A stretch of 54,668 nucleotides of DNA from a virus (lineage: Duplodnaviria; Caudoviricetes), in the IMG/VR virus record IMGVR_UViG_3300008450_000051, positions 1-54,668 of that record; one strand, 5' to 3'. This document shows positions 15,401 to 38,406 of the stretch, piece by piece. Within the stretch, counting starts at the first letter, position 1. Each line of letters begins with the position of its first letter. Position numbers and translations under genes: made by a program. The notes under the pieces were generated by a model. It was not told the DNA's origin. It was given only the letters and a program-made list of their open reading frames with translations, and made no database searches.

Positions 15401-17447
15401 TGGTATAGGCAAAGACAATGTTACTGATCTTGAAATAGCAAAGAAAGCTTTAGAAGATTTTAATAATGATCCTAATAAAGCTGAGATAGAAGATGCTGCT
15501 AAAAGATACCAAGAGATGGCTGATGCTGGTCTCCGTTACATGGTTGATAAGGGTAGACTTGCAGAAGAGATTAGAGATAAAGATGGCAATCTAATTGGTG
15601 GCTATAAGTTCATTAAAGAAAACAACCTTGAGTATGTGGCTATGCAGAGATTGAATGAGACAGAGGTTGGGGAGCCTATTGAATTTAATATTAAAAAAGG
15701 TGGTCAGGTTGGTAGTGTATCAGAGCCAATTAAAAAGATTAAAGGATCTGAGAAAAAAATACAAGACCCATACGTATCTTTATTAGACAACACAAATAGA
15801 ATGATGAAAGAGGCTAATAGGAATGAAGTGCTTCTTTCATTTAGGAATCTAATTGAGAATGAGCAAGATCCACAATTAAGAAAAGATCTTGAAAGCATAG
15901 GTAAAAAAGTTGGTAGTAAAGACAAAGAAACTATTACGGTATTTGTAGACGGTAAACCAGAGTACTGGAAATTCCAGCAAGATATTTATACTGCCTTAAA
16001 GGGATTAGACAGTGAGGCGTATAAGCTACCTACATTTTTAACAGTGTTGCCTCAAGTTCTTAGATGGACTGTTACTAGATTCCCTACGTTTGCAGCTAGA
16101 AATATTGTCCGTGACTTTCAGTCAAGACTCATACTATCTAATGCTAATCCTTGGGAGTCTGTTAAAAGAAGTATTACTACTGCTGATAAGTGGGATGAGG
16201 CTGCTCGTACTGGCGCCCTTAATGCTGGTATGTATACACAAGGGAAAGAGATGTACTACGAGCTTATGAGGGATGCATCTAATAAGATTGTTAAGGAAGG
16301 TAGCTTTGTTGTAACGCCAGATAAATTAAAGTCTCTATGGAACACATATGAGAAAGCTTTATATAAATCAGAGACTACAGGGCGTGTGTCAGAATATGAG
16401 GCTTCGTTCAATGAGGCTAAGAAGAAGGGCATGGATGATTACAATGCCATGCTTTATGCAGGTTCAAGGGCACGCGGATTAATTGATTTTGCTGTGGCTG
16501 GTAATACAATGAAAGTAATCAACCAGTTAATCCCATTCAGTAATGCTGCTGTACAGGGTCTTCGTTCTGCAGCGATGAGAGCGAAAGAAAATCCATCTGG
16601 ATTTGCCATGCGTATTGCACTGTTCTCACTTATACCAGAGATTGCCGTATATAGTTTGTCTAGAGGAGATAAGGATAAAGAGAAAATGTATGAGTCACTA
16701 CCTGATTGGCAAAGAGATATGTTCTATAATATATACATGGGCAACAATAAGTGGCTAGCAGTACCAAAACCATTTGAGCTTAGTTTATTTGGTAGTGCAT
16801 TGAATAGGGGGATGAGTTACGCTGAAGGTAATAAGAAAGCATTTGATGGATTTGCTGGTACGACTTACAAATCACTCATGCCTATAGAGGGCACGGATAT
16901 CGCAGGACCTTGGCAGAAAATGTATGAGGTGAGCGCCAACTATGACTTCTTTAGAAGAAAAGAGATCATTCCTAGATCGCAGTCAGCTTTGGATATGTCA
17001 CTTCGTGATACAGAAAGTGCTTCTAGGATTGGTAAAGTTATTGGTGATCTAATGAAGGCAGACCCAAGAATGGTTGACCATTACATTAAAGGGCAGTTCT
17101 CTTACTTTGGTAAGGCTGCCTTGGAATTATCAAATATGGGTAGACCTAAAGGTGAGGCAAGCGATGAGTTTAAATTATCTGAGAAGTCTGGATTTGTAAA
17201 AGATAACTCAGCATACGTATCTAAGCCTGTACAAGAGCTTAGAGATTTCACAGATAAGTGGGGGTTAAATAGCCATAGATGGATGAAGTACTTTAGAATG
17301 TATCAGAATAATTACTTCAACGAAAAAGATCCAAAGGTTAAAGAGCAATTGGGTAATGAAATGATGGACTTTGCTGAACAACTTTTGAACCTGTATAAAG
17401 AGGTTGGTATAGAAGAACTACAGAAGCAAAAAAAAGGTAAAGACTAA
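9444..17447 (+). CDS. large polyvalent virion protein (zincin-like HExxH domain; LPD38-like C-terminus)
   Basis: 2667 aa; 'GFY..DGSIHINL...ETMMHEGFH' metallopeptidase-like motif; recurring xFSR linkers; C-terminal 'YESLPDWQRDMFY...AVPKPFELSLFG' resembles LPD38. Confidence 0.75.
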   Translation: MAIKYLYSGEIFSPEEVEAAASKRNMSTQDYAKQFNIEGYEDIYEKDGNDVALEQIISDANKSNLKVSDFIAANNFKKKALSIPQDQSLLTGTPNVGENLKAGSQSQLQSGSVVEPIDPKKLSRDRVKLLSDLQKVKDSPSPDKSTMDEFGAQIIYTPRTDEINSIQKQIDELDSKLTGAGYRIEDYQTLASIPDWVSAEGGWSSPKNIAKYSSENPAWGNRFKSKVSAMDAFISMNDYQGAKQLQDLLVAKYGQQSSVANLDGSIKMLESLIDSRIPDKKQEVKSYINQYLKPEFNRFLPDLNKQNMEAYKLDEDQEAALQEMKLLDPAKYEDTVKMLAVPYKPVTGELNKPLLQWDLDKQRGLEKVRYDLKVAGRNNAINYSYSRLYDWRVKYDKATTDEERSNAAIQMEQWQNRINTISEEAKNDSKNYPLYYEDQNKRAATELLDDPDFNPFTYAWKAATKKLKNTAEGIGEVAMSPINAVASMLIGPEYKGAKMATKIGEAQAEATEEYLPASLQYVDPGTIISPNKELKAFADKVKSSDKSDDEKRSEIETYLKNNPNSFEHIENPNAGERKGIFSMASLYANVKTVADISALAGIGATARAYNVLGPTMSATLPFYMDVQQEAYKQRIAAGENSSTAYQNSVKDGMVVAAATLISPIHKIASAALGKAESSAIKNTIGGLTEAEWNAITSKYNRYVVAGSNSLKAMAKEGAKMGLVYGAGTTIGQELLEITPDKKDIKEVVQNGVYSAYDMLTNSAMLLGITGINNFKSVSPQAKSSIYAMANDHLGAKAYFDFLQKNGTISEESATQKKAVVDKLVSVLSQVPTRDKNGKILTEEQRAGYLYRAYQKNQAAELSKSMPDETRVEMEAKAKEMDADNAKIINGTLETDIAEAPKPQVLEVDKPAITSNTAQEVSRVKSLTTEAEDGATFNLDGKKYEGKGLIIPVLSENTTIEELTPQKVADFVEANKAKLGGSTKAGIYKFPNSNKVSIDLNIVVDPKYRDIGLEFGRKAGQESLFDLDTFENVKTGADGKNPMKFSDEQFSEISKALSEGKMPNVFGEMAEGVTAETAKAIDTTGMNDVQKGVVADAPNVLSAITPVMGEAGKKPQLFTYKTDAEYGKAVEGAGGSKEDSTTKGFYMDSDGSIHINLNRATPETMMHEGFHPVLNLLAENKPEIVKELFRQLDTIPVAKAMIDKARANYMGDVTQMKEAITDFNARVAKGEIKLDATTFEQIKQFFIDLMNKLGFSIEGQKIANMKNAAELKNVAELIQKAFTTGEAIKGTEIKDIQSAIEKANQKRVETGEMSAGEKEGGLMFSRTDYGTSGITKKPALDKDEYKAEVASGRISVVDPYKSLENKKFAMTFPDDFFTGTIEVNGEPIGYGNGGVFYTAKHGKRGDAWASVSEGSASNFVTQANKSLEANNGEGIVTIVKGDDMKHKTSLESKVSFVNTILKYAEKTGDTTGVVKAIKSAYNLGNVKDPAKIIEYFNNYLASGRAESGQRMVDAGVSFDTFMASMIKEARPVVTKMMQDMGYKGENFFDGTQLKKGIELATTKGLKNVYSDLLREDFLKDVKPGSAYAAIKFTSPLKFEKDPTHPSYPYVIRTVDGSPVKLEVFDKTFNTYGKDVAITGRKGDETKAFGVATTVSPEFSIKPESKGSASEVSLSESLTGYEAFKKPEFSRTGPQAMANKIIVGDEDISFVLDYVSTPANLLRTLQGANTSNKFFDFNRDVRKPIADQIQNDLEFWKKELSSISPINKEGDLSPIKVNRINKAQDRVDALQNALDSWNNNAFSITDISLNNYKLQTSQPEFSREDKTAKDIISENIQIGKPERKGAVARFIETVGDKNFDVNWMDRVKREMLDSLSIFNKAADRAKGIRGLDEVLPANDPMTLVRLLNGFDASFNSAMNEGMFNAKLERIKSQDGSNMNIDWLMDPISKMSKGSKEGYNQAVKDVTSYMVAKRTVELSKRFDREEMISGIGKDNVTDLEIAKKALEDFNNDPNKAEIEDAAKRYQEMADAGLRYMVDKGRLAEEIRDKDGNLIGGYKFIKENNLEYVAMQRLNETEVGEPIEFNIKKGGQVGSVSEPIKKIKGSEKKIQDPYVSLLDNTNRMMKEANRNEVLLSFRNLIENEQDPQLRKDLESIGKKVGSKDKETITVFVDGKPEYWKFQQDIYTALKGLDSEAYKLPTFLTVLPQVLRWTVTRFPTFAARNIVRDFQSRLILSNANPWESVKRSITTADKWDEAARTGALNAGMYTQGKEMYYELMRDASNKIVKEGSFVVTPDKLKSLWNTYEKALYKSETTGRVSEYEASFNEAKKKGMDDYNAMLYAGSRARGLIDFAVAGNTMKVINQLIPFSNAAVQGLRSAAMRAKENPSGFAMRIALFSLIPEIAVYSLSRGDKDKEKMYESLPDWQRDMFYNIYMGNNKWLAVPKPFELSLFGSALNRGMSYAEGNKKAFDGFAGTTYKSLMPIEGTDIAGPWQKMYEVSANYDFFRRKEIIPRSQSALDMSLRDTESASRIGKVIGDLMKADPRMVDHYIKGQFSYFGKAALELSNMGRPKGEASDEFKLSEKSGFVKDNSAYVSKPVQELRDFTDKWGLNSHRWMKYFRMYQNNYFNEKDPKVKEQLGNEMMDFAEQLLNLYKEVGIEELQKQKKGKD

Positions 17448-26854: not shown

Positions 26855-27079
26855 TTAAAGTGAATTGAGATACGTCTGCAGGAATCCATACTCGCTGGCT
26901 AGGAAATAGATAGTCTGCCAGTCATAGTAGAACTTGGTCTCCTTGCCTATCTGTATCGCCTTGACAAAGTGACCAACGACCAGCGACTCATGGTTAGCCA
27001 TAAGCCACTTGCGGTAGGGCTTCAGATCGTAATCCTGCCCATCTAGAATCATAATGTCCTTGGAATAATCGTACTTCAT
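26855..27079 (-). CDS. hypothetical protein
   Basis: 74-aa ORF heading the recombination operon. Confidence 0.6.
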   Translation of the reverse strand: MKYDYSKDIMILDGQDYDLKPYRKWLMANHESLVVGHFVKAIQIGKETKFYYDWQTIYFLASEYGFLQTYLNSL

Positions 27080-27411
27080 TTAGACTAAGGTAGGAATAAT
27101 ACATACACATTGTTAAAAAGTTTTCCAAATGTTTTACACATAGCAAGGTCTATATCCCTGAGACTGGGATAGTCCGCTACTTTGTTTACGATTCGTAGCA
27201 TCATAGCCCAATCATGCATCCCCATATCCAAGGGGGAGTGGTCTTCTTACGAAGTCTCAGGTCACTGGTTGTCACCTTTAAAACATTGCCAGCTCTTTTA
27301 ACCACTCCTATCATCTCCCGACCGGCGACTAACTGGTCGGTTAAGCATGAAGGACAATTAACTTTCTTTGGGTAGCCATCGTACTACCATTGGAAGAAAC
27401 CTGTTAAAACC

Positions 27412-27440
27412 AAAAAGCCCCCGATCCGAAGACCGAGGGC
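27412..27440 (-). terminator. intrinsic terminator with UUCG loop
   Basis: Minus strand GCCCTCGGTC-TTCG-GATCGGGGGC-TTTTT. Confidence 0.75.
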
Positions 27441-27532
27441 TATAAAAAAACCCCAAGTGGTAAGAGCAAATGGGGAGCAGTTAAAATAGAATTAGTATGT
27501 CCCCGATTTCGCCTCTTACACGTCATCGGAAG
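27412..27532 (-). ncRNA. candidate small RNA/attenuator with complementary hairpin loops
   Basis: Promoter immediately upstream; hairpin loops GTAAGAG and CTCTTAC are complementary; two terminator-like hairpins. Confidence 0.5.
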
Positions 27533-27535
27533 CCC

Positions 27536-27566
27536 CAAATATATAAATACTTTTTAAATAAACAAG
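27536..27566 (-). promoter_or_regulatory. Bacteroidota sigma70-type promoter
   Basis: Minus strand TTG-N19-TATATTTG. Confidence 0.6.
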
Positions 27567-27579
27567 GAATTACTGGGGT

Positions 27580-27870
27580 AATCTTTTGCACAAGGTAGTG
27601 AATATCACTACTTATCGCTCATTATTACTCCAGTTATAGCTCATTTGTACAGTTTTTTGCACAATAAACTGGATATTACTTGTAACATTTTTATGTACGA
27701 AAAAGTGTACATTATAACACTTTTATGTACATAATGTGTGATAAAAGCGACATATTACCACCTTTTGTACCATTTTACTACACTTTATTGTGACAAAAAT
27801 TAAGCGCTGAGTTTAAATTATAGGCGCAAGTTGTACTAATAGTATAAAAATCTGCATTAAATTTTCCGGA
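27580..27870. repeat. AT-rich array of short palindromes/TGYAC repeats (candidate attP or protein-binding array)
   Basis: Eight TGYAC cores plus inverted repeats (GTAGTGA-ATA-TCACTAC; AAAGTGT..ACACTTT); non-coding, downstream of the integrase operon. Confidence 0.4.
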
Positions 27871-27874
27871 TTCT

Positions 27875-28090
27875 TCATGCATACTCAGATGATACGCCAT
27901 GCCCAGCCAGTGCTTGGTCTAGGTCTAACCTCCTGACATCGAACTCGTTAAGGTCAGGATTGCGCTCCAGTTTCCGGAAGTCTCGGGGGCTTAACACCTT
28001 GAGGCAGAACACCTCATAGCTAACCGATCCCAGTCTCTCCTCATCGTGGTAGATTATAACTGGATCTTGGAGTGCTATTCTTATCTTCAT
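27875..28090 (-). CDS. hypothetical protein
   Basis: 71-aa ORF, coupled. Confidence 0.55.
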   Translation of the reverse strand: MKIRIALQDPVIIYHDEERLGSVSYEVFCLKVLSPRDFRKLERNPDLNEFDVRRLDLDQALAGHGVSSEYA

Positions 28091-28320
28091 AGGATTTTAT
28101 TTATGTTGGCGTACTCTTCGTGTACTGGCCCCGATAGGCAGGAGCCTACCACCCTTTGGTTGAGTGTGAACTCCACCCACGTTTCATCTTTTAGTGTCGG
28201 TTCGGGGGAATCAATCGGAACCCAAGTAGTACGGCTAACTACTCTATTACCACCATAGGGTACGTCCTTATTAAATCTAACCCACCATCTGTTCTCTAGT
28301 CTGAATGTTTGTCCTTGCAT
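28087..28320 (-). CDS. hypothetical protein
   Basis: 77-aa ORF directly after the integrase. Confidence 0.55.
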   Translation of the reverse strand: MQGQTFRLENRWWVRFNKDVPYGGNRVVSRTTWVPIDSPEPTLKDETWVEFTLNQRVVGSCLSGPVHEEYANINKIL

Positions 28321-28322
28321 AG

Positions 28323-29330
28323 TTAAGCATTTAAGAATTCTTTATAGTAGTTGTTTATCTCACTCTTATGTACACTATCCACCCAGCCTTGATACCTCTT
28401 GATGGCATCCGACTTATGGCCGGAGGCAAACCTTACGTGGTCCAGTGACACACCACCAGCCAGCATCGTTGTGATGGCGGTCTTGCGTAGCATATGTGGG
28501 TGTACGATATCGCAGAACTTACTTGACTGGAGCGACTTATCACCAGTGTGGTCCGCCTTCTTGTACGTGGTCTCCTCGTGCATCTCAGGGTAGGTAGCAA
28601 AGAATGGCTTGAGATTCTTGTTGATGAAGGTATCCTTACATCCGAAGCGAATGGGTGTGTATACCGATCCGTAGTTCTCTAGATTATAGAGATATCTTTT
28701 GTATAAAGATTCCGGCAGTGGTAGTGTGGTCATCGCCCCAGTCTTCTGATTCTCCTTCATAAGATATACGGAGCCGTTCATTACGATATCAGACTTGCTC
28801 AGGTTGATAGCATCGCCAACACGAAGAGAGGTGACCAGCATCGTTGCGCTTAGTTCCCAAAGATACTTATGCTCGGGGGACATAGAGTCATAGCGGTTAG
28901 CGGTATCGTTTATAAAGTCCTTAACGAACTGAATGGGTAGTGTTACAATGGGTACGTCAACTCCAATGGCGCGTCTTACTTTGGGTAGTGTGAGGAAGTA
29001 CTGCTCGGCCCAGTAGTCTGTCACTATTTTTAGAATATTGGTGACATCACGTCTTGTGTTAGCGGAGAATTTCTGACGAGTCATCCAGTCAATGAAGAGG
29101 TCGATGTGTCTATTGAACTTGTCTGCAACGGCGCGCTTCTCCTCCAGTGATAGGCTCGTGAGGTTGAACTCTTCTAGGTTGATACCACTCTTGGCGTATC
29201 GTTGGTAGGTCTTGAAGGCAAAGTTGTATGACTTGATAGACATCGGTTTGTAGTTGGTGCCGGATCGTGTGCGTAGTTCCCCAGTCCTCATCATCGTTAC
29301 ATACTTCTCCAGTAATGGTGTTAGCTTCAT
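28323..29330 (-). CDS. int: tyrosine recombinase/integrase
   Basis: Catalytic R (SLRVGD), K (QKTG), HxxR (HMLRKT), H (SGH), Y (IKRYQ). Confidence 0.9.
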   Translation of the reverse strand: MKLTPLLEKYVTMMRTGELRTRSGTNYKPMSIKSYNFAFKTYQRYAKSGINLEEFNLTSLSLEEKRAVADKFNRHIDLFIDWMTRQKFSANTRRDVTNILKIVTDYWAEQYFLTLPKVRRAIGVDVPIVTLPIQFVKDFINDTANRYDSMSPEHKYLWELSATMLVTSLRVGDAINLSKSDIVMNGSVYLMKENQKTGAMTTLPLPESLYKRYLYNLENYGSVYTPIRFGCKDTFINKNLKPFFATYPEMHEETTYKKADHTGDKSLQSSKFCDIVHPHMLRKTAITTMLAGGVSLDHVRFASGHKSDAIKRYQGWVDSVHKSEINNYYKEFLNA

Positions 29331-29653
29331 GCGATTAATCTTATGTGTTCTAGTATAGCGTTTAATGATTCATCGGTAGGTGACTTGTATGCCTCCAGTT
29401 CATCGTGGACTTTTGCATACGCTTGGTCAGACCTATACCTTGAGGAGTGCAGAGAACGGCAGTAGACAATCACAGTGTGGTCAACACCCATCTGCTTACC
29501 AATCTCGGTTAGTGTGTATCCTAGATTCACGCTGAGGATTTTACCTATTGCGTGGCGGATTCTAACTGCACCCGCTTTTCGGGAGCGGTCTTTTCTGATA
29601 TCAATTCCGTACTTGTTCTTGGCAAATTCACAGAGGTCGTGGTACTCTTGCAT
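29327..29653 (-). CDS. DnaA domain IV-like HTH protein
   Basis: 'SRKAGAVRIRHAIGKIL...GYTLTEIGKQMGVDHTVIVY' resembles the DnaA C-terminal 'IG..F.RDHTTV' motif. Confidence 0.75.
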   Translation of the reverse strand: MQEYHDLCEFAKNKYGIDIRKDRSRKAGAVRIRHAIGKILSVNLGYTLTEIGKQMGVDHTVIVYCRSLHSSRYRSDQAYAKVHDELEAYKSPTDESLNAILEHIRLIA

Positions 29654-29934
29654 TGTTCGTATTTTTTAATTAGTTGAATAACTGCATCTGCTAACTCTTC
29701 GTTGATAGTGCGTAGCTTATGCACCACCAGTGCGTTTCTTTCTATCTTGTCTAGCTCTTGGTTGATAGCGAAGAACACCTTCTTTGCTGATTCTAATCGT
29801 CCCATATTGTTTGTTTAACTGGTTAAAAATGTTGGCAGATATCTCGTTGTAGGAAAGCCTCTCGCTAGGGTAGGTACTCTTAAACGTAGGCCGATAAATA
29901 ACTGGGGGCTTCTCATCAAAGAAGAAGCGTTTAA

Positions 29935-30141
29935 TCATCTGAAACATATGCGTTTGTTTAGTTTGTTTGATGAACAAATAGTTCTGTCTCTTACGTAGTC
30001 GGTAACTCTAGACGCTGGTAGTCCGGTGAATTGTCCGGCAGCCGACCTAGAAGGGAACACTCCCAGTAATTCTTTTTTGTCGACATCAAATACCTTTGTC
30101 TTGATACCCTCTACGTGCAGTCCGATTTTCTCTAACCTCAT
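29935..30141 (-). CDS. NUMOD1-like DNA-binding protein
   Basis: 'VFDVDKKELLGVFPSRSAAGQFTGL...VTDY'; start set at MRLEK. Confidence 0.6.
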   Translation of the reverse strand: MRLEKIGLHVEGIKTKVFDVDKKELLGVFPSRSAAGQFTGLPASRVTDYVRDRTICSSNKLNKRICFR

Positions 30142-30202
30142 AGGCTTAGTAAAGTAAGAATGGTTACGATTAACAATATGATTGGCAGTGTGAAGTCCTT
30201 TT

Positions 30203-30403
30203 TCATTCAATCTTTTTTGAGATGATGATACCATTGGGTGTACGCTCTACGATTAACCCATTCTTTTCCATCTCTGCCAGTTGCTCATCCAGTGGCATAA
30301 TCGGGCCGTCAGTTCGGGAGAATCCTACGTTGTCAGGAATCTTACCACTGGCGGTCTTCTTTACTTTGATTGTTGACTTCTTGTTGAATGCGTTGTCATT
30401 CAT
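30203..30403 (-). CDS. hypothetical protein
   Basis: 66-aa ORF in early operon. Confidence 0.5.
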   Translation of the reverse strand: MNDNAFNKKSTIKVKKTASGKIPDNVGFSRTDGPIMPLDEQLAEMEKNGLIVERTPNGIIISKKIE

Positions 30404-30571
30404 AGGGTTTTGTTTTTGTGTAAGTTAATAATGTTTTTCTTTAGCTCATCAAGGTAGATAATAATTTTATCCACATCGTGCTTGTTGACTTCATCTCGTA
30501 ACTGGCTTTCCGTTTGCAGTCCTCTGTCATACCACCTAGAATCATCACTCATTTGGTAGTAGAAATCGTGG

Positions 30572-30865
30572 TCAATAACTCTTTTCAGTAACTCTTTCAT
30601 TTGCAAATAGTTGTTTAAATCCTCTATAGATTCCCCTCTTGTACGCATCCGTCTCGTGGTTGAATGCACCGGCCAGTATCAGAGAGGTGACTGATACATA
30701 CTTCGTTTCAATGTAGTGGAGGAGGTTGGAGAATGTCTTACCCTCTCTCAGCCTATCCAGTAGTTCTTCGGGAGACGTAACTGGGGTGTCATCGAACTGA
30801 TTGATTCGCTTTGCGTTAATGTGCGCATCAGCGATTGCTTTGATTTCTGGGGTGATACGTTTCAT
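30572..30865 (-). CDS. hypothetical protein
   Basis: 97-aa ORF preceded by TAACCAAAC leader. Confidence 0.55.
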   Translation of the reverse strand: MKRITPEIKAIADAHINAKRINQFDDTPVTSPEELLDRLREGKTFSNLLHYIETKYVSVTSLILAGAFNHETDAYKRGIYRGFKQLFANERVTEKSY

Positions 30866-31281
30866 AGATTATTGTTTGGTTACTAATCCTAACTGGACAG
30901 CGGTCTCGGCATCGGCTTCGCTACCGAATTCAATCTCGGCGGGATACTCTCCTTCGGGGGAGGTGATTTCAAAGTCGAGGTCTTCATCCATTAGATACAT
31001 AATGTCGGATCGGGAGTGTGCTAGGTACTTCATATATTTATAGTTTTTGATAACGCTTCCAACCTACTTGCTTCTCATCCTCAGAGGCGAGTCTTCTATA
31101 CTCCTCGCGTAACTGGGACTTTAGCTTTCGGTCTTTTGTTTTGTGATACTCTTCCCACACCTTGTCAATCTCTGACTGGTGTGTCGGCTGATAGATTTTC
31201 GATTTCATTGGCTAATTGGATTAGTTCTTGAATTGCTTCTTCTATTTCTTTCATTTATAATTTGTTTTTTTCATTATCTTT

Positions 31282-31572
31282 TTACCAACTTGTCATAGCT
31301 CGTTGATAATTAGGATTACTTTTTAATGCTTCATCACAAGCAGTTTCAATATCCTTATCTATAATTGTTCTAAATCCTTTGTATTGACCATATGCGCCCC
31401 CGTATGTTTGCAACTGCAATATCTCTTTATTTTCATCTAAGTATTCTTTTACTTCTTTGGTGTCATTTTTAAATACTTCATATAAAGTAAGAGTCCCAAC
31501 TTGACCATAGCGGTCTACTCCACATTCAGAATAAAATGCTACTAATTTTTCTTTAATAAATTCTTTTTTCAT
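31282..31572 (-). CDS. hypothetical protein (AT-rich)
   Basis: 96-aa ORF, visibly lower GC than its neighbours. Confidence 0.6.
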   Translation of the reverse strand: MKKEFIKEKLVAFYSECGVDRYGQVGTLTLYEVFKNDTKEVKEYLDENKEILQLQTYGGAYGQYKGFRTIIDKDIETACDEALKSNPNYQRAMTSW

Positions 31573-31631
31573 AATTTTTTAAATTAGATTTTACCAACTT
31601 GTTTGATAATAAAATTGTTGTATCTCTTCCA

Positions 31632-31898
31632 TTACCATTGATTTTCGGTGAAGAATTTGTATGAATTTTGTAGGCTACCAGTTGTGCCTTTCTTTACCTC
31701 ATCGCGACTGGGGATGCGGTTGCCGTAGTAGTCTCGGTGGGACTCTTTGGGTAGGAAACAAGCGCCTGCTCTTAGTAAGTCCATTGCAGAGCGACCGATT
31801 GCTCCTTCCATTTTCCACGCCAGTCCAGTTTCAATTAGGTGTTGCATCTCTTCGTAGCCTTGCTCACGCTGATGCTTGCGGATAGTTTGAATGTGCAT
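31632..31898 (-). CDS. hypothetical early protein
   Basis: MHIQTIRK...'LIETGLAWKMEGAIGRSAMDLL.AG.C...RDYYGN'; start after TAACCAAACCC leader. Confidence 0.6.
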   Translation of the reverse strand: MHIQTIRKHQREQGYEEMQHLIETGLAWKMEGAIGRSAMDLLRAGACFLPKESHRDYYGNRIPSRDEVKKGTTGSLQNSYKFFTENQW

Positions 31899-32064
31899 AA
31901 CATAGGGTTTGGTTAATAATTTCAACGATAGTATCTTGGACTTCAAACTCATCATAAAGGTCTGTGTTTGTGCAGTCCTTTACATATCCTAGTTCAACTA
32001 GCTTGTCAGTAATTCGAATAGCGATGTCTCTTACATCATCTTCCGATAAGAATTTGCTTGTCAT
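31864..32064 (-). CDS. hypothetical early protein
   Basis: 66 aa, preceded by conserved leader. Confidence 0.55.
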   Translation of the reverse strand: MTSKFLSEDDVRDIAIRITDKLVELGYVKDCTNTDLYDEFEVQDTIVEIINQTLCYAHSNYPQASA

Positions 32065-32079
32065 AAAATTAGGGTTTGG

Positions 32080-32343
32080 TTAGGAACTGGGAGTGGAGTC
32101 GGAATGGTTAAACTCCGTTAAAATACATAAGCCTCTATCTGCACAATCTTTTACTATCTTTTTATCATTATGCTTTAGGAAGGCTACTATGCATTCATAT
32201 TCGGGCTTGTATCGGTCATTAAATGATGATAACTGGTAATCATAGAATAATTTTTTAATGTCTTCGTATAGTAGGTCGTACTCGTATTGAATGCCTATGA
32301 TTTCGTTATACAACTGGGTGAATAAAAAGAAAGAATAGTTCAT
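32080..32343 (-). CDS. hypothetical early protein
   Basis: 87-aa ORF. Confidence 0.55.
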   Translation of the reverse strand: MNYSFFLFTQLYNEIIGIQYEYDLLYEDIKKLFYDYQLSSFNDRYKPEYECIVAFLKHNDKKIVKDCADRGLCILTEFNHSDSTPSS

Positions 32344-32360
32344 AAATTTATTTTTTTTAG

Positions 32361-32621
32361 TTAATCAATCTCAATAAGTTTTCCGTCAACCAATTCGTAC
32401 TGATAGTCATCCTCCTCCCAATCCGTCCAGTAAGAATCGGTATCGGGAATCAGTTCGCCTTCACTATCAGTAGCGCCACTATACACCATATCGTGCCATT
32501 CAGCATCGGTGTATACTTGGTTAAGGCATTTATCGGAGCAGTAGTATGCCTCTCCTCCTCCAACTACATAGCCTTCGTTCATTCCGCACTCACATTGAGT
32601 GCATTGTCTTGCGTATTTCAT
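32361..32621 (-). CDS. small Cys-containing acidic protein
   Basis: CTQC...YCSDKC zinc-binding pattern, acidic C-terminus. Confidence 0.65.
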   Translation of the reverse strand: MKYARQCTQCECGMNEGYVVGGGEAYYCSDKCLNQVYTDAEWHDMVYSGATDSEGELIPDTDSYWTDWEEDDYQYELVDGKLIEID

Positions 32622-32637
32622 ATGAGTGGTGGTTTGG

Positions 32638-32841
32638 TTAAAAATTTAGCATTTCTATTTGTGATTTCAAGTACTCTTCAGCTTGATACCTTTTTTCTTC
32701 ATCACTTATTGTAATATTCTTGCCGTTGGCAAATTCAATATGTACTTTGCCATTATTTTGATGTGGTTTAAATCCACATTCCTTACCGATTAGTTCAAGT
32801 TGAAGCATCGCGTAACGAGTAGTTAAACTTATTGTGTTCAT
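32638..32841 (-). CDS. hypothetical early protein
   Basis: MNTISLTTRY..., after TAACCAAACCCC leader. Confidence 0.55.
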   Translation of the reverse strand: MNTISLTTRYAMLQLELIGKECGFKPHQNNGKVHIEFANGKNITISDEEKRYQAEEYLKSQIEMLNF

Positions 32842-32857
32842 ATGACTGGGGGTTTGG

Positions 32858-33010
32858 TTAATCATTTAAAGAATTAAGATGCTCTATCTCTGATTCATCA
32901 AGGTAGATGCGTAGACCATTATCTAACTTTATGTAGTTCACTCCTACATCAATAATCTTTTTGCCTACAATCCATTCCTTTGCTTCTTGCGTGAGGGTTA
33001 AGGTTGTCAT
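32858..33010 (-). CDS. small early protein (50 aa, below cutoff)
   Basis: MTTLTLTQEAKEWIVGKKIIDVGVNYIKLDNGLRIYLDESEIEHLNSLND*. Confidence 0.55.
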   Translation of the reverse strand: MTTLTLTQEAKEWIVGKKIIDVGVNYIKLDNGLRIYLDESEIEHLNSLND

Positions 33011-33032
33011 ATTTTATGGGGTTTTGATGAGG

Positions 33033-33076
33033 AACTGGGGGTGGTATCGCTCCACCTTCGCACTCTGCTCCCAGTT
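33033..33076 (-). ncRNA. tRNA-like three-way-junction element, copy 6
   Basis: AACTGGG-A-GCA(GAG)TGC-GAA-GGTGG(AGCGATA)CCACC-CCCAGTT. Confidence 0.7.
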
Positions 33077-33084
33077 GTTGGTGA

Positions 33085-33315
33085 TTAGCACCACGCTTGC
33101 GAACTGCTGATAGCCACCATAAACAATTGCTCAAACTCTCCCTTTGTTATCGTGGTGAAATCATCCCATCCGCAGTAAGCATCAAGAAGGTCAAGCGGTG
33201 ATGACTTGCCATACTCCCATTTATATACACCGAATGGTATTTCTTTTAGTCCATTTACTCCTTCCCTTTGGTAGGTAATTATTGCTTGGAAACCGAATAA
33301 AAAATATTGATTCAT
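33085..33315 (-). CDS. hypothetical early protein
   Basis: MNQYFLFGF..., start 20 nt after RNA element. Confidence 0.6.
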   Translation of the reverse strand: MNQYFLFGFQAIITYQREGVNGLKEIPFGVYKWEYGKSSPLDLLDAYCGWDDFTTITKGEFEQLFMVAISSSQAWC

Positions 33316-33334
33316 TGTATTGGGTTTTGGTGAG

Positions 33335-33381
33335 GAACTGGTCGGATAGCGAGTCCGATTGATGCCGAGCATCGCCAGTTC
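33335..33381 (-). ncRNA. tRNA-like three-way-junction element, copy 5
   Basis: GAACTGG-C-GATGC(TCG)GCATC-AA-TCGGA(CTCGCTA)TCCGA-CCAGTTC. Confidence 0.7.
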
Positions 33382-33387
33382 GTGTGT

Positions 33388-33567
33388 TTACTCGTTGTCG
33401 TATTCGTTTTTATACCAATGTGAGATGTGAATTAACCTATCAATTAACTGAGAATCTGACTCTTTGGCGAGGTCAATAAAATCTTTGTGAGTAAATAAAT
33501 CTAATTCGCTTCCAGTCAGTTCAACAATGGCATCGACTAGTTTTTGTCTAATTGTGTTTGGAGTCAT
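33388..33567 (-). CDS. small early protein (59 aa, below cutoff)
   Basis: MTPNTIRQKLVDAIVELTG...YKNEYDNE*, flanked by RNA elements. Confidence 0.6.
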   Translation of the reverse strand: MTPNTIRQKLVDAIVELTGSELDLFTHKDFIDLAKESDSQLIDRLIHISHWYKNEYDNE

Positions 33568-33588
33568 AGTATTGGAGGTTTGGTTAGC

Positions 33589-33630
33589 AACCGAGGGCAG
33601 TATCGCTCTGCCTTAACCACTCTCTCGGTT
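33589..33630 (-). ncRNA. tRNA-like element, copy 4
   Basis: AACCGAG-AGAGTGGTTAA-GGCAG(AGCGATA)CTGCC-CTCGGTT; linker resembles a D-loop. Confidence 0.7.
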
Positions 33631-33638
33631 TGGGTACG

Positions 33639-33899
33639 TCAGCTATTTACTCGTTCTGCAAATTCCTTTAACGTATGGTAGCTATATGAATCCGACTCGT
33701 ATAAATCATAGAGAAATTCTTTTGCGCAGTAGAATCTTTCTACCTCTTCGCCGAAATACACTTGCTTGATAAGGTCGTTAATGGTTGGGAAAATGACCGC
33801 CGTAGTTCTTGTAATTACAATGTGAACTGCATTGCCATTGCCATCGTGACGGCATTCGTAAGTTTCATCCGCTTTGCGGAGATGTTCGCTATGCAACAT
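33639..33899 (-). CDS. hypothetical early protein
   Basis: 86-aa ORF flanked by RNA elements. Confidence 0.6.
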   Translation of the reverse strand: MLHSEHLRKADETYECRHDGNGNAVHIVITRTTAVIFPTINDLIKQVYFGEEVERFYCAKEFLYDLYESDSYSYHTLKEFAERVNS

Positions 33900-33919
33900 A
33901 TTACTGGAGTTTTGGTTAG

Positions 33920-33966
33920 GAACTGCTCCGGTATCGCTCCGGTATGACCGCTGAGGTCGGCAGTTC
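33920..33966 (-). ncRNA. tRNA-like three-way-junction element, copy 3
   Basis: GAACTGC-C-GACC(TCAGC)GGTC-ATA-CCGG(AGCGATA)CCGG-A-GCAGTTC. Confidence 0.7.
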
Positions 33967-33972
33967 GGGGGA

Positions 33973-34317
33973 TTATTTACCTATCAAATCAAGAAAATCC
34001 ATACAAGTGTATTTACCTTCTAATGGCTCCCATACTGAAACCCCTTCTATATTATCTATATATTCATTTTTGTCTTCACTATTTTCTATTCTCCTTACTT
34101 GCTCCTCTATCTCTTCTCCGTCCCAATTACTTAAATAATATGATGCATTTGTTACATAATCTTCTGGAATGGCATTCAGAATACTCTCAGATTCCGCTTT
34201 TAAATGAAGGATAAGACCTTCGGTTACTACGCAATTGATATCGTTATTGGTAGTTGGGTTGTAATTTTCAACTGCTTGAGTTATAGCTTCTATTGCTTTT
34301 CTTACTTGAGTTTTCAT
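33973..34317 (-). CDS. hypothetical early protein
   Basis: MKTQVRKAIE..., acidic, 114 aa. Confidence 0.6.
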   Translation of the reverse strand: MKTQVRKAIEAITQAVENYNPTTNNDINCVVTEGLILHLKAESESILNAIPEDYVTNASYYLSNWDGEEIEEQVRRIENSEDKNEYIDNIEGVSVWEPLEGKYTCMDFLDLIGK

Positions 34318-34333
34318 AATGTTTTGAGTTTGG

Positions 34334-34492
34334 TTAATGCTTAAAAAATACACTTAAAGATTTTGTATGCTTATTTGCTTGGTAGTATAATGGCTTTTCG
34401 TTTTTGCCTGCCATTGATAGCCATAAATTCAAATGTTGAGTAGATTTGAATGTTCGGCAATAAGTTTTTGACTGATGTTGAATCTTATTCAT
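34334..34492 (-). CDS. small early protein (52 aa, below cutoff)
   Basis: MNKIQHQSKTYCRTFKST...; start 20 nt after RNA element. Confidence 0.5.
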   Translation of the reverse strand: MNKIQHQSKTYCRTFKSTQHLNLWLSMAGKNEKPLYYQANKHTKSLSVFFKH

Positions 34493-34511
34493 TTTATAGG
34501 GTTTTGATGAG

Positions 34512-34557
34512 GAACTGCGGTCGGTTTCGCTCCGACTTCGGTCTTACCTCGCAGTTC
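34512..34557 (-). ncRNA. tRNA-like three-way-junction element, copy 2
   Basis: GAACTGCG-A-GGT(AAG)ACC-GAA-GTCGG(AGCGAAA)CCGAC-CGCAGTTC. Confidence 0.7.
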
Positions 34558-34562
34558 GGCCG

Positions 34563-34772
34563 CTACTTGAAATACTCTTCCACTAATTCAGTATAATCAT
34601 CATTTTTACCATACCCTCTAAATACTTGTAAATATTTAGAATCATACCCATTCATTAGCTTATCTATATCACTTAATGAAGGGATTTTACTTCTTGTTTC
34701 ACTACCTTGTATAGATGGGTATGGGGAATTGAAATCCCTTTCTGATGTGTGAAATAATAATTGGTAATCCAT
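34563..34772 (-). CDS. hypothetical early protein
   Basis: MDYQLLFHTSER..., flanked by RNA elements. Confidence 0.6.
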   Translation of the reverse strand: MDYQLLFHTSERDFNSPYPSIQGSETRSKIPSLSDIDKLMNGYDSKYLQVFRGYGKNDDYTELVEEYFK

Positions 34773-34791
34773 TTTATTTAGTTTTGATGAG

Positions 34792-34834
34792 GAACTGCAC
34801 ACCATTGAAGGTCACGGCCAAACCGATGCAGTTC
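34792..34834 (-). ncRNA. tRNA-like three-way-junction element, copy 1
   Basis: GAACTGCA-T-CGGT(TTG)GCCG-TG-ACC(TTCAAT)GGT-G-TGCAGTTC. Confidence 0.65.
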
Positions 34835-34921
34835 GGGGGACTTATCTACAAATTTGGTCTTGCAGTAAACCTACTACATACCCTACTACCAGTAGGACAA
34901 GTAATAACTGAATAACTTGCT

Positions 34922-35116
34922 TCATAGAGGTGACAATTTAGTTTGACGGCATACACGCTCCCATTTTAAGTCGCGTAGGATTTGCTTAGAATCCCCACCT
35001 AACTCGGCAAGGATTTGCTTTACCCGATTGTGGGTAGAGATAACGGCTTCCGCTCTGCGGATAACTTGCCCATTGGCTTTTGCCGTGAATAGGGGGGACT
35101 TAATTCTTTTGCGCAT
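34922..35116 (-). CDS. small basic early protein
   Basis: 64 aa, start after CCCAGTT leader. Confidence 0.55.
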   Translation of the reverse strand: MRKRIKSPLFTAKANGQVIRRAEAVISTHNRVKQILAELGGDSKQILRDLKWERVCRQTKLSPL

Positions 35117-35230
35117 AACTGGGAGATTGAAGGGTTATAAAATCGGTTTGGAAGGTCACAATCTGCCAACCCTCATAGAGGAATTTACTGGCTATTTGCT
35201 GACCTCTTAGGGTGGTGATGTTAATGGTTA

Positions 35231-35410
35231 TCATAGTTTTTCAATTGCTTTATTTGAAAGTCCTAGTGTTAATACGGTAACTCCCATTATTGAAGTAATT
35301 GCGCCAAACATCATAAAGCCTTTATCTAGGTAAGGAAGTCCCGCTAGAAAGAAAGGGTTTAAAATGATTGCTGGGATTACTAATTTTAATAAGAATACTA
35401 GTTTTTTCAT
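35231..35410 (-). CDS. small membrane protein, first gene of early operon
   Basis: MKKLVFLLKLVIPAIILNPFFLAGL...; two hydrophobic stretches; start 13 nt after the hammerhead. Confidence 0.6.
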   Translation of the reverse strand: MKKLVFLLKLVIPAIILNPFFLAGLPYLDKGFMMFGAITSIMGVTVLTLGLSNKAIEKL

Positions 35411-35423
35411 AACTGGGGTTTTT

Positions 35424-35472
35424 GGTTTCGCCTTGCTTAGGCTCATCAGTACGGATAGCGTATCCGTAGACC
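35424..35472 (-). ncRNA. hammerhead ribozyme (type III topology)
   Basis: Minus strand GGTC^TACGGATA(CGC)TATCCGTA-CTGATGA-GCCT(AAGCA)AGGC-GAAA-CC: complete core, GUC cleavage triplet, 8-bp stem I, 4-bp stem II, short 3-bp stem III. Confidence 0.85.
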
Positions 35473-35886
35473 TTATCCAATCTGTCGGAGGATGAACTGC
35501 CGATGCGACACCGCATCCGTTTACACCCTCATTCCGACTCCGAAAGAGCGCTACGATAATCACGGTCACACCGCTTGGGGTTTTCTCTCCCCGACTATCC
35601 CTCATCAATGCACCGACAAGGTAGTGGTTTCCTAAAAGTTAGCCATTAGGTATGGGCTGACTGGTTTGGGGCTGATAGCCTTAGGTCGGAGGTCATCCGA
35701 GCATCATAACTGGTACTAACGGAGGAGAGGGCGGTAGGTGACTACTGATGCCTTCGCTCGTTTCCCGATGCCGTAAGAGGTTTGGTGTTCCGTCCATCAT
35801 ACTCACCTATACGGGTGGATGGGTGGGAGTGCGTTACCCTAACTCAAAACCTTAAAAGAACTTCGGACTCACTAACGAATCCGAGG

Positions 35887-35919
35887 CAAACATACATCGG
35901 CAGGGTAACTACTTCCAAA
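35887..35919 (-). promoter_or_regulatory. Bacteroidota sigma70-type early promoter
   Basis: Minus strand TTTG-N21-TATGTTTG, perfect -33/-7 consensus, A-tract upstream. Confidence 0.8.
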
Positions 35920-35939
35920 TTTATTTTTTTAAATTGCAG

Positions 35940-36001
35940 TTATCCACATAAAAAATAGCTTGTAAGTTATTGAAAATCACAGCGTAGAAAAGTTATCCAC
36001 A
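35940..36001 (+). promoter_or_regulatory. two perfect DnaA boxes (TTATCCACA)
   Basis: TTATCCACA at 35940-35948 and 35993-36001, same orientation, AT-rich context. Confidence 0.6.
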
Positions 36002-36057
36002 TTTCAAAAAAAGTTTTGACTGGATGGGTAACTGGGGGTAAAAAAGGGGGTATCGGC

Positions 36058-36133
36058 TACTAATATTTTTAGTATGCGATGCTAAAGAATTTAGTCGATC
36101 CTCTATGAAACGAAATTGCTAAAGAGATTAGCA
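36058..36133. promoter_or_regulatory. three 17-bp operator-like inverted repeats
   Basis: TACTAATATTTTTAGTA (36058), TGCTAAAGAATTTAGTC (36080), TGCTAAAGAGATTAGCA (36117). Confidence 0.6.
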
Positions 36134-36156
36134 AAAGGGGGGAGTTCGGGGGTATA

Positions 36157-36489
36157 CTAAAGCCGTTTGTTAAGTAAGTAGTTACGTATATAGGATAGAT
36201 ATTCTCTCCCTAAAGGAGTAATAGAGTAACGCTTGTGCGTCTCCCTAATGGCAAGGCCAAGAAGACAAAGAGAATTCAAGTAGTTCCAAGAGGAGCGATT
36301 GTCAGCCCTCTTAACGTGTGGACGATGCAAGAAGACAAAGTCAGCCAAGGCCGTTTGACTGGTAGCACCAAGACGCTTGAGGCCATACAAGAATCGTAAC
36401 TGGGTGTAGTTTAACTGGGGAATCCCAGTACGCTGAGAGGCTCGGTAAATAGCCGTATCAACACACAAAAAAAACTTCTCTATCTTCAC
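36157..36489 (-). CDS. winged-helix (MarR-like) DNA-binding protein
   Basis: 'LNYTQLRFLYGL....ATSQTALAD', 'L..LGLA', 'YSITPLGREYL' wHTH signature. Confidence 0.7.
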   Translation of the reverse strand: MKIEKFFLCVDTAIYRASQRTGIPQLNYTQLRFLYGLKRLGATSQTALADFVFLHRPHVKRADNRSSWNYLNSLCLLGLAIRETHKRYSITPLGREYLSYIRNYLLNKRL

Positions 36490-36923
36490 GGGTGCAAGGT
36501 TTTTTGTAAAGGAGGGAGGGGGGCTATTGTATCTTCAAACACACACGCATAATCGCCACATTCCCAATAAGTTACAAGCTTTTTCTCCAGTTCCGTTTCC
36601 CCCTTCATTTCATCCTTATTGGATTCGCGACCAGTACATTTATAACCTAAGCGTATGTGTGTCAGCCAGTTAGGTATTCTATGGGGGTTATATGGTATTA
36701 CCCGTTCGAGCCTAAAATCGATTTTGGAATGCCAAAAAATACCCCCACCCAGTGCGCGATTTCGGGTTCGCAACTGGTCGCGTACCCACCCAAATATATG
36801 TATTACCCCCACTCTTTTCCCACACACATCTGATCTATAAACCCTTGGCATAAACTCTCGATTTTTTGTAGTTCAAAAATAGGGTATATTTTGTTGTTAT
36901 ATACGGCTGTGAATAATTTGTAT

Positions 36924-36955
36924 TTTGGCGGTTCGGGGTTCTCTTTGTATGTTTG
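36924..36955 (+). promoter_or_regulatory. Bacteroidota sigma70-type promoter heading the rightward region
   Basis: TTTG-N20-TATGTTTG. Confidence 0.75.
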
Positions 36956-37219
36956 TCTGGCTACGTTATCCGGGTGCATGGAGATAGTATCAAGGGGGCC
37001 CCGTAGCTGTGTGAAGGGCGAGACTTCGGCGAGGATTTGATAGGACAGGTCAACACGCGTAAACTGGCGGAAGACCCTCCAAAGGCGATGCCACCAAATA
37101 GGATGGACGGCCTTAACAACCCATAGGGGGGAAGGGGGGTGTGCTCAGGACTTTCTTGGCTTAGATTTAATATCTTCTTTATCTCTTGTTTCTCAGTATC
37201 CTAATTTAATTTGCACTGT

Positions 37220-37381
37220 ATGGAAATGCTATTACGCAAAGATGGTTCTTACTCACGTCGTGGTTTATGGGATAACATCCGTGCCAAGGCTGGTAGTGGT
37301 AAGAAGCCAACCAAGCAAATGTTAAAACAAGAAGCTAAAATTAAAAAAGATGCCTCTAAAAAAAGCAAAGGGAAAAAGTGA
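37220..37381 (+). CDS. small basic protein (53 aa, below cutoff)
   Basis: MEMLLRKDGSYSRRGLWDNIRAKAGSGKKPTKQMLKQEAKIKK... Confidence 0.6.
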   Translation: MEMLLRKDGSYSRRGLWDNIRAKAGSGKKPTKQMLKQEAKIKKDASKKSKGKK

Positions 37382-37523
37382 GCTCCAGTCAGCCATCTCG
37401 GCTAATATCCGTGAATTGATGGCGGATAACAAGAAGAAGGGTAAGGAGAAGGGGGCTGGTGGTAAAGCCAGATCCAAGAAGCAGATCCTTGCTATTGCTA
37501 TATCAGCTGCCAAAGGTAAATGA
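37350..37523 (+). CDS. small basic protein (57 aa, below cutoff)
   Basis: MPLKKAKGKSELQSAISANIREL...KQILAIAISAAKGK*; ATGA overlap with the HNH gene. Confidence 0.6.
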   Translation: MPLKKAKGKSELQSAISANIRELMADNKKKGKEKGAGGKARSKKQILAIAISAAKGK

Positions 37524-37789
37524 GGAAGCACACTAAGGTATACTTAGACTTCTTTGGTTACGGGATGGATAGCTGGATGCCCTGCGAGATGTGCGGATCT
37601 ACGGCTGTGGATGTGCATCATATCGAGGCTCGGGGTATGGGTGGGTCTAAGACAAAGGACGAGATAGATAATCTGATGGGTCTTTGCCGTACATGCCATG
37701 TTGAGTATGGCGACAAGAGGAAGTACATGGACATGCTCCGTGAGGCGCACATGCGTTTTATGGATAAGTATAGTAATTCACATTTGTAG
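37520..37789 (+). CDS. HNH endonuclease
   Basis: CEMC...DVHHI...GMGG...NLMGLCRTCH. Confidence 0.85.
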   Translation: MRKHTKVYLDFFGYGMDSWMPCEMCGSTAVDVHHIEARGMGGSKTKDEIDNLMGLCRTCHVEYGDKRKYMDMLREAHMRFMDKYSNSHL

Positions 37790-37836: not shown

Positions 37837-38406
37837 ATGCAGCCGATCTATAAAATCTTCGTCAAGATTGATAAACGGTTTCAAAACGAAATAGAAACCG
37901 AGTCTGGCTTAAAGCTATACAAGGATACTTCGTTTAGACCTGAGGAGAACTCCACTATCGTTGGTGATGTCGTTGCTGTGCCTGATAAGTATGACAGGGC
38001 TATGGGCTCTGATCAGTTTAAGGCCAATGTCATTGCTGGCGATAAACTATATTTTAATTTCTTGGTGACGGTAGATGAGGAGAATAGAATTGAGGTAGAT
38101 GGTGAGGAGTACTGGATGGTAGATTATTTTAATGCGATCGCGCTGGTGCGTGATGGTGAGCTAATACCAGTTGGAGATTATATTCTTATTGAGCCAATAG
38201 ATGAGAAGATAGAGAGCACGCTAATTATCCCAGAAACTGTAGATAGGGAGGGCAACCGTGGCCGTGTGGTGGCAAGCAACGATGAATCTATTCCAAACGG
38301 ATCGCTGGTGGAGTATGAGGAGGTGGGTAAGTTTTGGAACATCATTGAAGGCAAGAGGGTTTACTGTATGTATAACCAGAACATTTTATTTTTATATAAT
38401 GACTAA
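37837..38406 (+). CDS. GroES-like co-chaperonin (tandem domains)
   Basis: 'ETESGLKL..VGDVVAVP' and 'IPVGDYILIEP...LIIPET...GRVVA' repeats of the GroES fold. Confidence 0.7.
   Translation: MQPIYKIFVKIDKRFQNEIETESGLKLYKDTSFRPEENSTIVGDVVAVPDKYDRAMGSDQFKANVIAGDKLYFNFLVTVDEENRIEVDGEEYWMVDYFNAIALVRDGELIPVGDYILIEPIDEKIESTLIIPETVDREGNRGRVVASNDESIPNGSLVEYEEVGKFWNIIEGKRVYCMYNQNILFLYND

Follow-up and report, generated by a model that had tools for sequence, protein, structure and literature searches.

What a self-cleaving RNA might be doing directly ahead of the early genes of a phage is the question raised by a 54,668-base IMG/VR virus record (IMGVR_UViG_3300008450_000051, completeness estimate 82%), the whole of which was analysed here and is referred to as the window. 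Hundreds of bacterial hammerheads near prophage genes, and clusters of them flanking genes, are described in Perreault et al. 2011 (PMC3088659), while the account given in a 2019 review (PMC6765202) presents most genomic ribozymes as functional orphans, their function still being undefined. A first-pass annotation of the window had placed a hammerhead core at 35424-35472 on the minus strand, with a cut between 35469 and 35468 that lies 58 nt before the ATG at 35410, and these coordinates are all confirmed by the present analysis. The features of the locus are collected in Table 1.

Table 1. Coordinates of the ribozyme, its leader and the neighbouring elements in the window.
Feature	Position	Strand	Remarks
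Type III hammerhead ribozyme	35424..35472	-	Supported by core, descriptor, RF00008, synteny and covariation
Stem III	35472-35470 with 35426-35424	-	3 bp, open, includes the A15.1-U16.1 pair
C17	35469	-	Predicted cut between 35469 and 35468
Stem I hairpin	35468-35450	-	8 bp, 3-nt loop
Core CUGAUGA (C3-U4-G5-A6-N7-G8-A9)	35449-35443	-	
Stem II hairpin	35442-35430	-	4 bp, G10.1-C11.1 closing pair
GAA (G12-A13-A14)	35429-35427	-	
First ORF, 59 aa, hydrophobic, no family	35231..35410	-	ATG 13 nt past the last pair of the ribozyme
ORF-free structured leader RNA, ~415 nt	35469..35883	-	Putative 5' end, placed by the promoter motif
Leader 5' hairpin	35883-35864	-	Followed by AGUUCUUU at 35862-35855
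Promoter-like bipartite motif	35887..35919	-	TTTG 35919-35916, 21 nt, TATGTTTG 35894-35887
Two perfect TTATCCACA 9-mers	35940-35948, 35993-36001	+	Between the MarR-like gene and the leader promoter
MarR-like winged-helix protein, 110 aa	36157..36489	-	Upstream gene, same strand as the ribozyme; weak family match

Read on the minus strand, positions 35472..35424 give GGUC^UACGGAUA-CGC-UAUCCGUA-CUGAUGA-GCCU-AAGCA-AGGC-GAA-ACC, in which the cleavage triplet has the N-U-H form (GUC, 35471-35469), U35470 is paired with A35426 and C17 is unpaired. A type III descriptor (CUGANGA, GAA, H17 and stems of at least 4, 3 and 3 bp), with which both strands were scanned, matches the window once, at the ribozyme site, and 1500 dinucleotide-preserving shuffles of the window yielded 61 lenient matches, none with stems of at least 8, 4 and 3 bp and 5 with at least 15 pairs in total. 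The comparison with Rfam hammerhead models that had been proposed for this element (cmscan) gave a divided outcome, as RF00008 (Hammerhead_3) does match 35420-35476 on the minus strand over its full length (1-54 of 54) with 33.4 bits and E-values of 4.7e-05 in a 1.2-kb search and 4.1e-04 in a 10.6-kb search, but this score is below the gathering score of 48.5 and nothing is reported at gathering thresholds. The latter value is a curation threshold and not a structural feature of the ribozyme, and all scored members of the family described below fall under it (31.4-44.3 versus 48.5 bits); the family shares with RF00008 the full-length match, the type III topology and the canonical core, whereas its stem I is longer and its stem III shorter than in the model. 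In the ViennaRNA centroid of the isolated element a neighbouring UGG is paired instead of the catalytic register, and the single-sequence folding energy is unexceptional (z = -1.46 for the ribozyme and -1.52 for a 561-nt region).

It could be argued that such a motif is a look-alike, due to chance or decay, which undergoes no cleavage and is conserved for a different reason, such as a site acting at the DNA level close to a replication origin. This would agree with the Rfam score, with the five shuffles that reach 15 total pairs, a rate that is non-negligible over a scan of very many windows, and with the DnaA-box-like 9-mers and the turn in GC skew found nearby. Perfect matches to TTATCCACA, which we take to be the DnaA-box consensus, number three in the window against 0.61 expected, the third being located at 30467-30475; the two listed in Table 1 are 53 nt apart and close to the cumulative GC-skew minimum (~34-35 kb). 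According to the alignment these boxes are also present in the relatives L003, L057 and L060, and the promoter spacer contains a GTTAYCC-like stretch; the pair could be a replication origin or belong to a DnaA-regulated early promoter. Taken by itself, the sequence of the window does not fully exclude a chance match, and it is the conservation of the element in relatives that excludes chance.

Relatives were collected with a GroES-like protein, encoded 2.4 kb away (37837-38406, plus strand), as the marker. This fetched 6 IMG/VR and 24 metagenome loci, 14 of which extend at least 2.7 kb upstream of the marker, including 2 duplicates (L059, identical to L004, and L067, identical to L005). A syntenic hammerhead on the same strand is present in all ten distinct contigs with a marker identity of at least 66% (L002-L007, L057, L060, L065 and L070), making 11 loci with the window, and is absent from 2 distant loci with a marker identity of 39-48%. 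RF00008 assigns 31.4-44.3 bits to four of the first six relatives. The other two, L004 (3054-2997, minus strand) and L007 (3615-3558, minus strand), were found by direct sequence reading to carry a variant hammerhead with CUGACGA, an extra U between A9 and stem II, and wholly different stems I and II; this variant is missed by Rfam at E<=10 and receives 31.7 bits from our family-specific model R1, from whose training set it was left out. The 13 core positions are retained in 11 of 11 loci save for a permissible change at N7, with C7 (a free position) and the one extra U after A9 occurring only in L004 and L007. Stem III has 3 bp in five of the 11 loci, the window among them, and 4-5 bp in the remaining six, and stem II is found as GCCU/AGGC, GGCC/GGCC or GUCC/GGAC. 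A Watson-Crick match of 3-4 bp between loops I and II (GCU/AGC and similar) can be drawn in the window, L002, L003, L057, L060, L065 and L070, and no consistent match of this kind can be drawn, reading the sequences by eye, for L004, L005, L006 and L035; across the loci as a whole no consistent loop-loop pseudoknot could be drawn. Where a hammerhead has such a tertiary contact of loops I and II, this gives it fast cleavage at physiological Mg2+.

Covariation was assessed by aligning nine members of the family with three further phage hammerheads of type III (12 sequences); L004 and L032 were excluded because MAFFT misaligned them. In this alignment, which like those used for the leader (6 and 4 sequences) is small and made up of related sequences, 88% of the cells pair, compared with 24-38% when partners are slid, 6 of the 16 ribozyme pairs have changes on both sides (a number reached by 6 of 500 shuffles), and neither the 17 cells with both-side changes nor the covariation score of 0.237, against 0.071 in shuffles, is reached in any of 500 shuffles. 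Compensatory changes occur in all three stems, the A15.1-U16.1 pair is invariant in all 12 sequences and G10.1-C11.1 is likewise retained in 12 of 12. A chance or decayed motif accords poorly with these data: the core is kept in 11 of 11 loci, N7 aside, while the stems change by compensatory substitution, stems I and II of L004 and L007 are completely changed with the fold kept, and a constraint acting on DNA would not yield compensatory pairs. Because of these substitutions a non-functional reading is very unlikely, and it is the syntenic conservation together with the compensatory changes in relatives that leads us to accept the motif as real. Judged by comparative sequence analysis, the element is a genuine, conserved type III hammerhead RNA structure with predicted catalysis, and its carriers are a small family of uncultured freshwater phages. 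Similar DNA was not found among deposited phages, the bacterial genomes searched yielded neither a relative of the GroES-like protein, which would have pointed to a host, nor a prophage relative, and the hammerhead pattern gave only 4 unrelated MAG loci there.

The gene context places this RNA at a particular point of the genome. In the PHROGs annotation the structural genes lie on the plus strand (terminase at 41796, portal at 43802, head protein at 47399), and the genes found 3' of the ribozyme on the minus strand comprise small ORFs, an integrase-like gene, a RecE-like exonuclease and a primase/helicase; by this gene order the ribozyme stands at the head of a minus-strand early/replication operon. 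The structural module also contains a 2667-aa ORF (9444-17447, plus strand), whose sole match is PHROG 9854 (unknown function), over residues 1956-2561. The position that had been proposed for the ribozyme, directly ahead of the first ORF of the minus-strand early operon, is borne out by annotation and synteny. To call that ORF the first early gene is correct in so far as it is the first of the operon, with the caveat that the MarR-like gene (36489..36157) lies upstream on the same strand, beyond a gap that contains the promoter-like motif. The MarR-like protein scores 18.1 bits against PF01047, under the cut-off of 24.6, and is 95% identical in the contig of L002; the alignment shows the 3' end of its gene to be conserved in relatives. 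Between this gene and the ATG at 35410 lie 746 bases (35411-36156) in which each of the six frames is broken by all three stop codons, which rules out a hidden ORF under another genetic code. The integrase-like gene (28323-29330, minus strand; phrog_1, E 9e-16) is part of the early operon, and its presence, together with that of a MarR-like gene by the early promoter, suggests a temperate phage with a repressor-type regulator.

While the position of the ribozyme is fixed, what follows it is not. In 11 of 11 loci the ATG of the first ORF comes 3-16 nt past the final pair of stem III. The ORFs themselves are non-homologous between loci: the window has a hydrophobic one of 59 aa and L002 one of more than 228 aa, and elsewhere they are small and unrelated, from which it follows that the ribozyme travels with leader and promoter and with no gene in particular. 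The first ORF behind the ribozyme of L006 is homologous to the third of the small ORFs that follow it in the window (34922-35116, minus strand); insertion or loss of small genes has therefore taken place immediately after the ribozyme. The spacer from ribozyme to ATG in the window (AAAAACCCCAGUU) is without a Shine-Dalgarno-like sequence. A wider set of hammerheads is defined by a stem I of the UACGG...CCGUA type, present in 45 IMG/VR stretches that are mostly type II hammerheads; in 34 of 37 distinct stretches, a count for which there is no shuffled control, an ATG-initiated ORF of at least 30 aa starts no more than 110 nt past the CUGAUGA box and in most cases 21-38 nt past it, and a position just before a start codon is thus typical of this class. 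The same stem I recurs in further type III hammerheads of phages, namely those of L031 (1519-1470, minus strand), L035 (5739-5785, plus strand) and L032 (8239-8191, minus strand), which end ORF-free stretches that start with sigma-70-like promoters. The leaders of L031 and L035 have a CACGGAGG...ACGAGCC...GAGAAAGU motif in common that corresponds to no Rfam family, and L031 has two Twister-P5 ribozymes downstream (383-437 and 113-176, both minus strand), at 49.0 and 46.4 bits and above the cut-off.

On its upstream side, the ribozyme terminates a long stretch devoid of ORFs for which a transcription start can be proposed. The bipartite motif TTTG-N21-TATGTTTG fits what we take to be the Bacteroidota-type -33/-7 promoter consensus; this presumptive label draws on that consensus and on the missing Shine-Dalgarno sequence. 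With both strands counted, the window contains 3 motifs of the TTTG-N21-TAnnTTTG type. Nine of the 11 loci have this promoter motif at a distance of 370-557 nt ahead of the cleavage site, and loci that differ in their 5' module are among them. From the position of this motif the start of the transcript would be near 35883, at the foot of the 5' hairpin, and the ~410-nt leader that the first-pass annotation had envisaged fits with a promoter-like motif ~415 nt upstream. A second TAnnTTTG at 35923-35916 makes an alternative start near 35911 possible, which would extend the leader to ~443 nt.

The alignments indicate a modular layout of this leader, with a 5' hairpin, a 5' module in most loci and one of two 3' modules, so that in the window AGUUCUUU is followed by the 5' module common to most relatives and then by the variant A module (~35770-35480). 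Variant A is carried by the window, L005, L060 and L070, and variant B by L002, L003, L004, L006, L007, L057 and L065. For the 3' domain of variant B, 50 pairs were predicted, of which 16 are backed by compensatory changes, a number that none of 500 shuffles attains, and 96% of cells pair versus 31-44% when slid; for variant A, such changes are seen at 10 of 83 predicted pairs in 4 sequences. As the sequences are related and the folds were predicted on the very alignments used to test them, these numbers support a structured leader more firmly than any particular fold. A and B may be two unrelated modules, and variant A goes undetected at E<=10 by model R2, which was built on the 3' domain of variant B. 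In L007, L065 and L070, whose leaders are longer, two copies of the AGUUCUUU 8-mer flank an inserted module of ~130 nt, and in two MAG contigs (L080, L082) the 8-mer comes directly after stem III of unrelated hammerheads of type III; its role could be that of a terminator-like U tract, a processing site or a site of protein binding.

Searches for known relatives of the leader or for further RNA elements nearby gave the following results. Against 4227 Rfam families, no match other than the hammerhead was obtained at E<=10 for 35000-36200 or at E<=1 for six relatives, and the leader matches no covariance model of GOLLD, ROOL, HEARO, RAGATH, riboswitches, group I/II introns, RNase P or tmRNA (Rfam, ARAGORN). 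Three motif scans of IMG/VR for further leader homologues returned only contigs already in the set, as did the MarR-like protein used as a query, which recovered a single contig. Within the phage, only 12-nt matches, at chance level, were found for an antisense target of the leader. Two expectations of the first-pass annotation find no support here. For tRNA-like elements downstream of the ribozyme, ARAGORN gives 0 tRNA/tmRNA in the window and Rfam nothing tRNA-like in 27000-37600 at E<=5. For an RNA-based processing programme, which would involve more than one site, model R1 detects a single hammerhead in the 54.7-kb window, and the Rfam search of 27000-37600 at E<=5 gave no family besides the hammerhead. 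A second ribozyme was likewise not detected in the window by Rfam at gathering thresholds, by the descriptor or by model R1 over the whole 54.7 kb.

The leader sequence is also encountered in RNA libraries. Contigs of four such libraries from three freshwater or aquatic studies fall inside the leader, between 35505 and 35866, namely a contig at 35505-35795 with no differences from the window (X1), one at 35534-35736 (X2), several between 35580 and 35866 together with one that has variant-B-like flanks (X3), and one at 35622-35773 (X4). These contigs, which carry no strand, end or abundance information, end short of the cleavage site and come from libraries that DNA may contaminate, show only that leader sequence is present in RNA libraries. 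Neither the ribozyme nor the ORFs downstream of it nor the region upstream of 35866 is covered by them, and such gaps in contig cover say nothing about cleavage or about relative abundance.

Taking these lines of evidence together, we consider it probable that a genuine type III self-cleaving hammerhead marks, at a fixed place, the 3' end of a structured non-coding leader of ~370-560 nt transcribed from the early-operon promoter, and that its predicted cut both insulates the mRNA and matures the leader. Directly observed are the motif with its conservation and synteny, the covariation in ribozyme and leader, the lack of ORFs and the occurrence of leader sequence in RNA libraries; the transcription start, the cleavage, the end chemistry and the functional consequences are inferred. 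As RNA polymerase completes the GAAACC strand, stems I, II and III would assemble and the RNA would cut itself after C35469, so that one primary transcript would give two molecules, a leader RNA and a polycistronic early mRNA. By established hammerhead chemistry, the leader would be a discrete RNA of ~415 nt with the 5' hairpin at its start and a 2',3'-cyclic phosphate at its end, and the early mRNA would start with a 5'-OH and the hairpins of stems I and II, with 13 unstructured nucleotides between these and the AUG. The hairpin-bearing 5'-OH end of the mRNA that had been anticipated for this locus would thus follow from the anatomy of the ribozyme and that same chemistry. The main effect would be one of insulation and maturation, in that the start of a variable first gene would be uncoupled from a large folded leader and receive a constant 5' end, and the leader would be freed as a separate, probably stable RNA.

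The open stem III bears on whether such a cut would be constitutive, and conditional activity due to its 3 bp, as raised by the first-pass annotation, is possible. In a regulated ribozyme, the adjacent domain, or a protein or ligand bound to it, would decide whether stem III forms, and the leader would be a sensor that sets how much early mRNA is separated. Such regulation of cleavage is raised for phage hammerheads in the account of Perreault et al. (PMC3088659), and at this locus it would be in line with a weak stem III of 3 bp in five of the 11 loci, lying 12-20 nt from a structured domain that is conserved and covarying, and with folds that show alternative pairings of the GGUC strand. These alternatives, however, amount to 3-5 bp and are not conserved across loci, stem III has 4-5 bp in the other six loci, no riboswitch or aptamer family of Rfam is matched, and the two leader variants differ in the very domain that adjoins the same ribozyme, so that a leader acting as a sensor is an unlikely reading of the locus. 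Long-range pairing between the GGUC strand and a GAC(C/U) further upstream was also considered; being 4-5 bp long and not conserved, it was rejected.

The predicted 5'-OH end admits of a different interpretation. In Bacillus, cleavage by the glmS ribozyme exposes a 5'-OH that marks the mRNA for decay through RNase J, and a cut of this kind in the phage would destabilise the early mRNA and limit early expression, the leader being then a mere long 5' UTR. Hammerhead chemistry does yield such an end, and altered transcript stability is among the roles put forward in the review PMC6765202. Against this, the 3' product would keep two stable 5'-terminal hairpins and a conserved short spacer to the AUG in 11 of 11 loci, and thus looks built for expression, and a decay signal gives no reason for a conserved and covarying leader of ~400 nt; a cut that serves to shorten the life of the mRNA is therefore decidedly improbable.

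Several known systems resemble the insulating and maturing arrangement that we favour. In the early leaders of phage T7, at the R0.3 site ahead of gene 0.3, and of phage lambda, between nutL and the start of N, cleavage is performed by host RNase III, which gives the mRNA a defined 5' end bearing a terminal hairpin and makes translation independent of how the leader is folded. There, as would be the case in the window, an early-promoter leader is removed just upstream of the first early gene; the difference is that T7 and lambda make use of a host enzyme and obtain a 5'-phosphate, whereas a self-cut yielding a 5'-OH and a 2',3'-cyclic phosphate is predicted in the window. In insulators of the RiboJ type, a type III hammerhead engineered between promoter-derived 5' sequence and the translation start makes expression independent of the upstream RNA; the placement before the translation start is the same, but RiboJ is engineered and the window element is natural and would in addition release a conserved upstream RNA. 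With GOLLD, ROOL, HEARO and RAGATH the leader shares the character of a large structured phage-associated RNA, RAGATH being defined by proximity to hammerhead or twister ribozymes, and it differs from them in its lack of a match to any of the 4227 Rfam families.

The closest parallel in the literature is that of haloviruses HF1/HF2, for which Perreault et al. (PMC3088659) describe a hammerhead (HHphage) located 13 nt before the first early gene and a transcript 5' end mapped within 3 nt of the cleavage site. HHphage likewise occurs singly in a tailed dsDNA virus, at a distance of 13 nt from the first start codon of an early polycistronic transcript, and the cut sets the 5' end of the mRNA; as described there, HHphage is a variant in core and structure that needs high Mg2+ and belongs to a virus of an archaeal host, whereas the core in the window is canonical, and that description includes no long conserved structured leader, whereas the window ribozyme ends a covarying one of ~400 nt. 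Prophage clusters of hammerhead or twister ribozymes, as presented in PMC3088659 and PMC6765202, share the phage context, the intergenic position just before ORFs, the variable neighbours and a proposed function in processing polycistrons, but these are multiple ribozymes within an operon, as exemplified by L031 with its one hammerhead and two Twister-P5, whereas the window has a single one, at the junction of leader and operon and not between genes. In conclusion, hammerheads before phage early genes have been known since 2011, the ribozyme of the window is one more of this kind, and what is new is the fixed union of this ribozyme with a conserved, modular and covarying leader RNA.

A bolder view, which we regard as possible though on balance doubtful, is that the leader represents a new class of large modular phage ncRNA (~370-560 nt, with at least two interchangeable 3' modules) whose 3' end is made by the hammerhead and which, being made first upon infection, has a function in trans such as host takeover, anti-defence or control of the lysis-lysogeny or replication switch located beside the DnaA boxes. 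The true job of the ribozyme would then be maturation of an ncRNA, and the same layout with unrelated leaders would recur in other uncultured phages. If this is true, the combination of promoter, long structured leader, hammerhead and first early gene would be a general phage strategy.

For the role of bacterial and phage hammerheads this locus offers an unusually clean test case, as one canonical ribozyme has a fixed place between a conserved, covarying leader and a variable first gene, a promoter motif is recognisable, and environmental RNA libraries contain sequence of the leader. Once cleavage is confirmed, the two proposed roles, to insulate the mRNA and to mature an ncRNA, would be directly separable here, and the leader would add to the few large structured RNAs of phages that have no known function.
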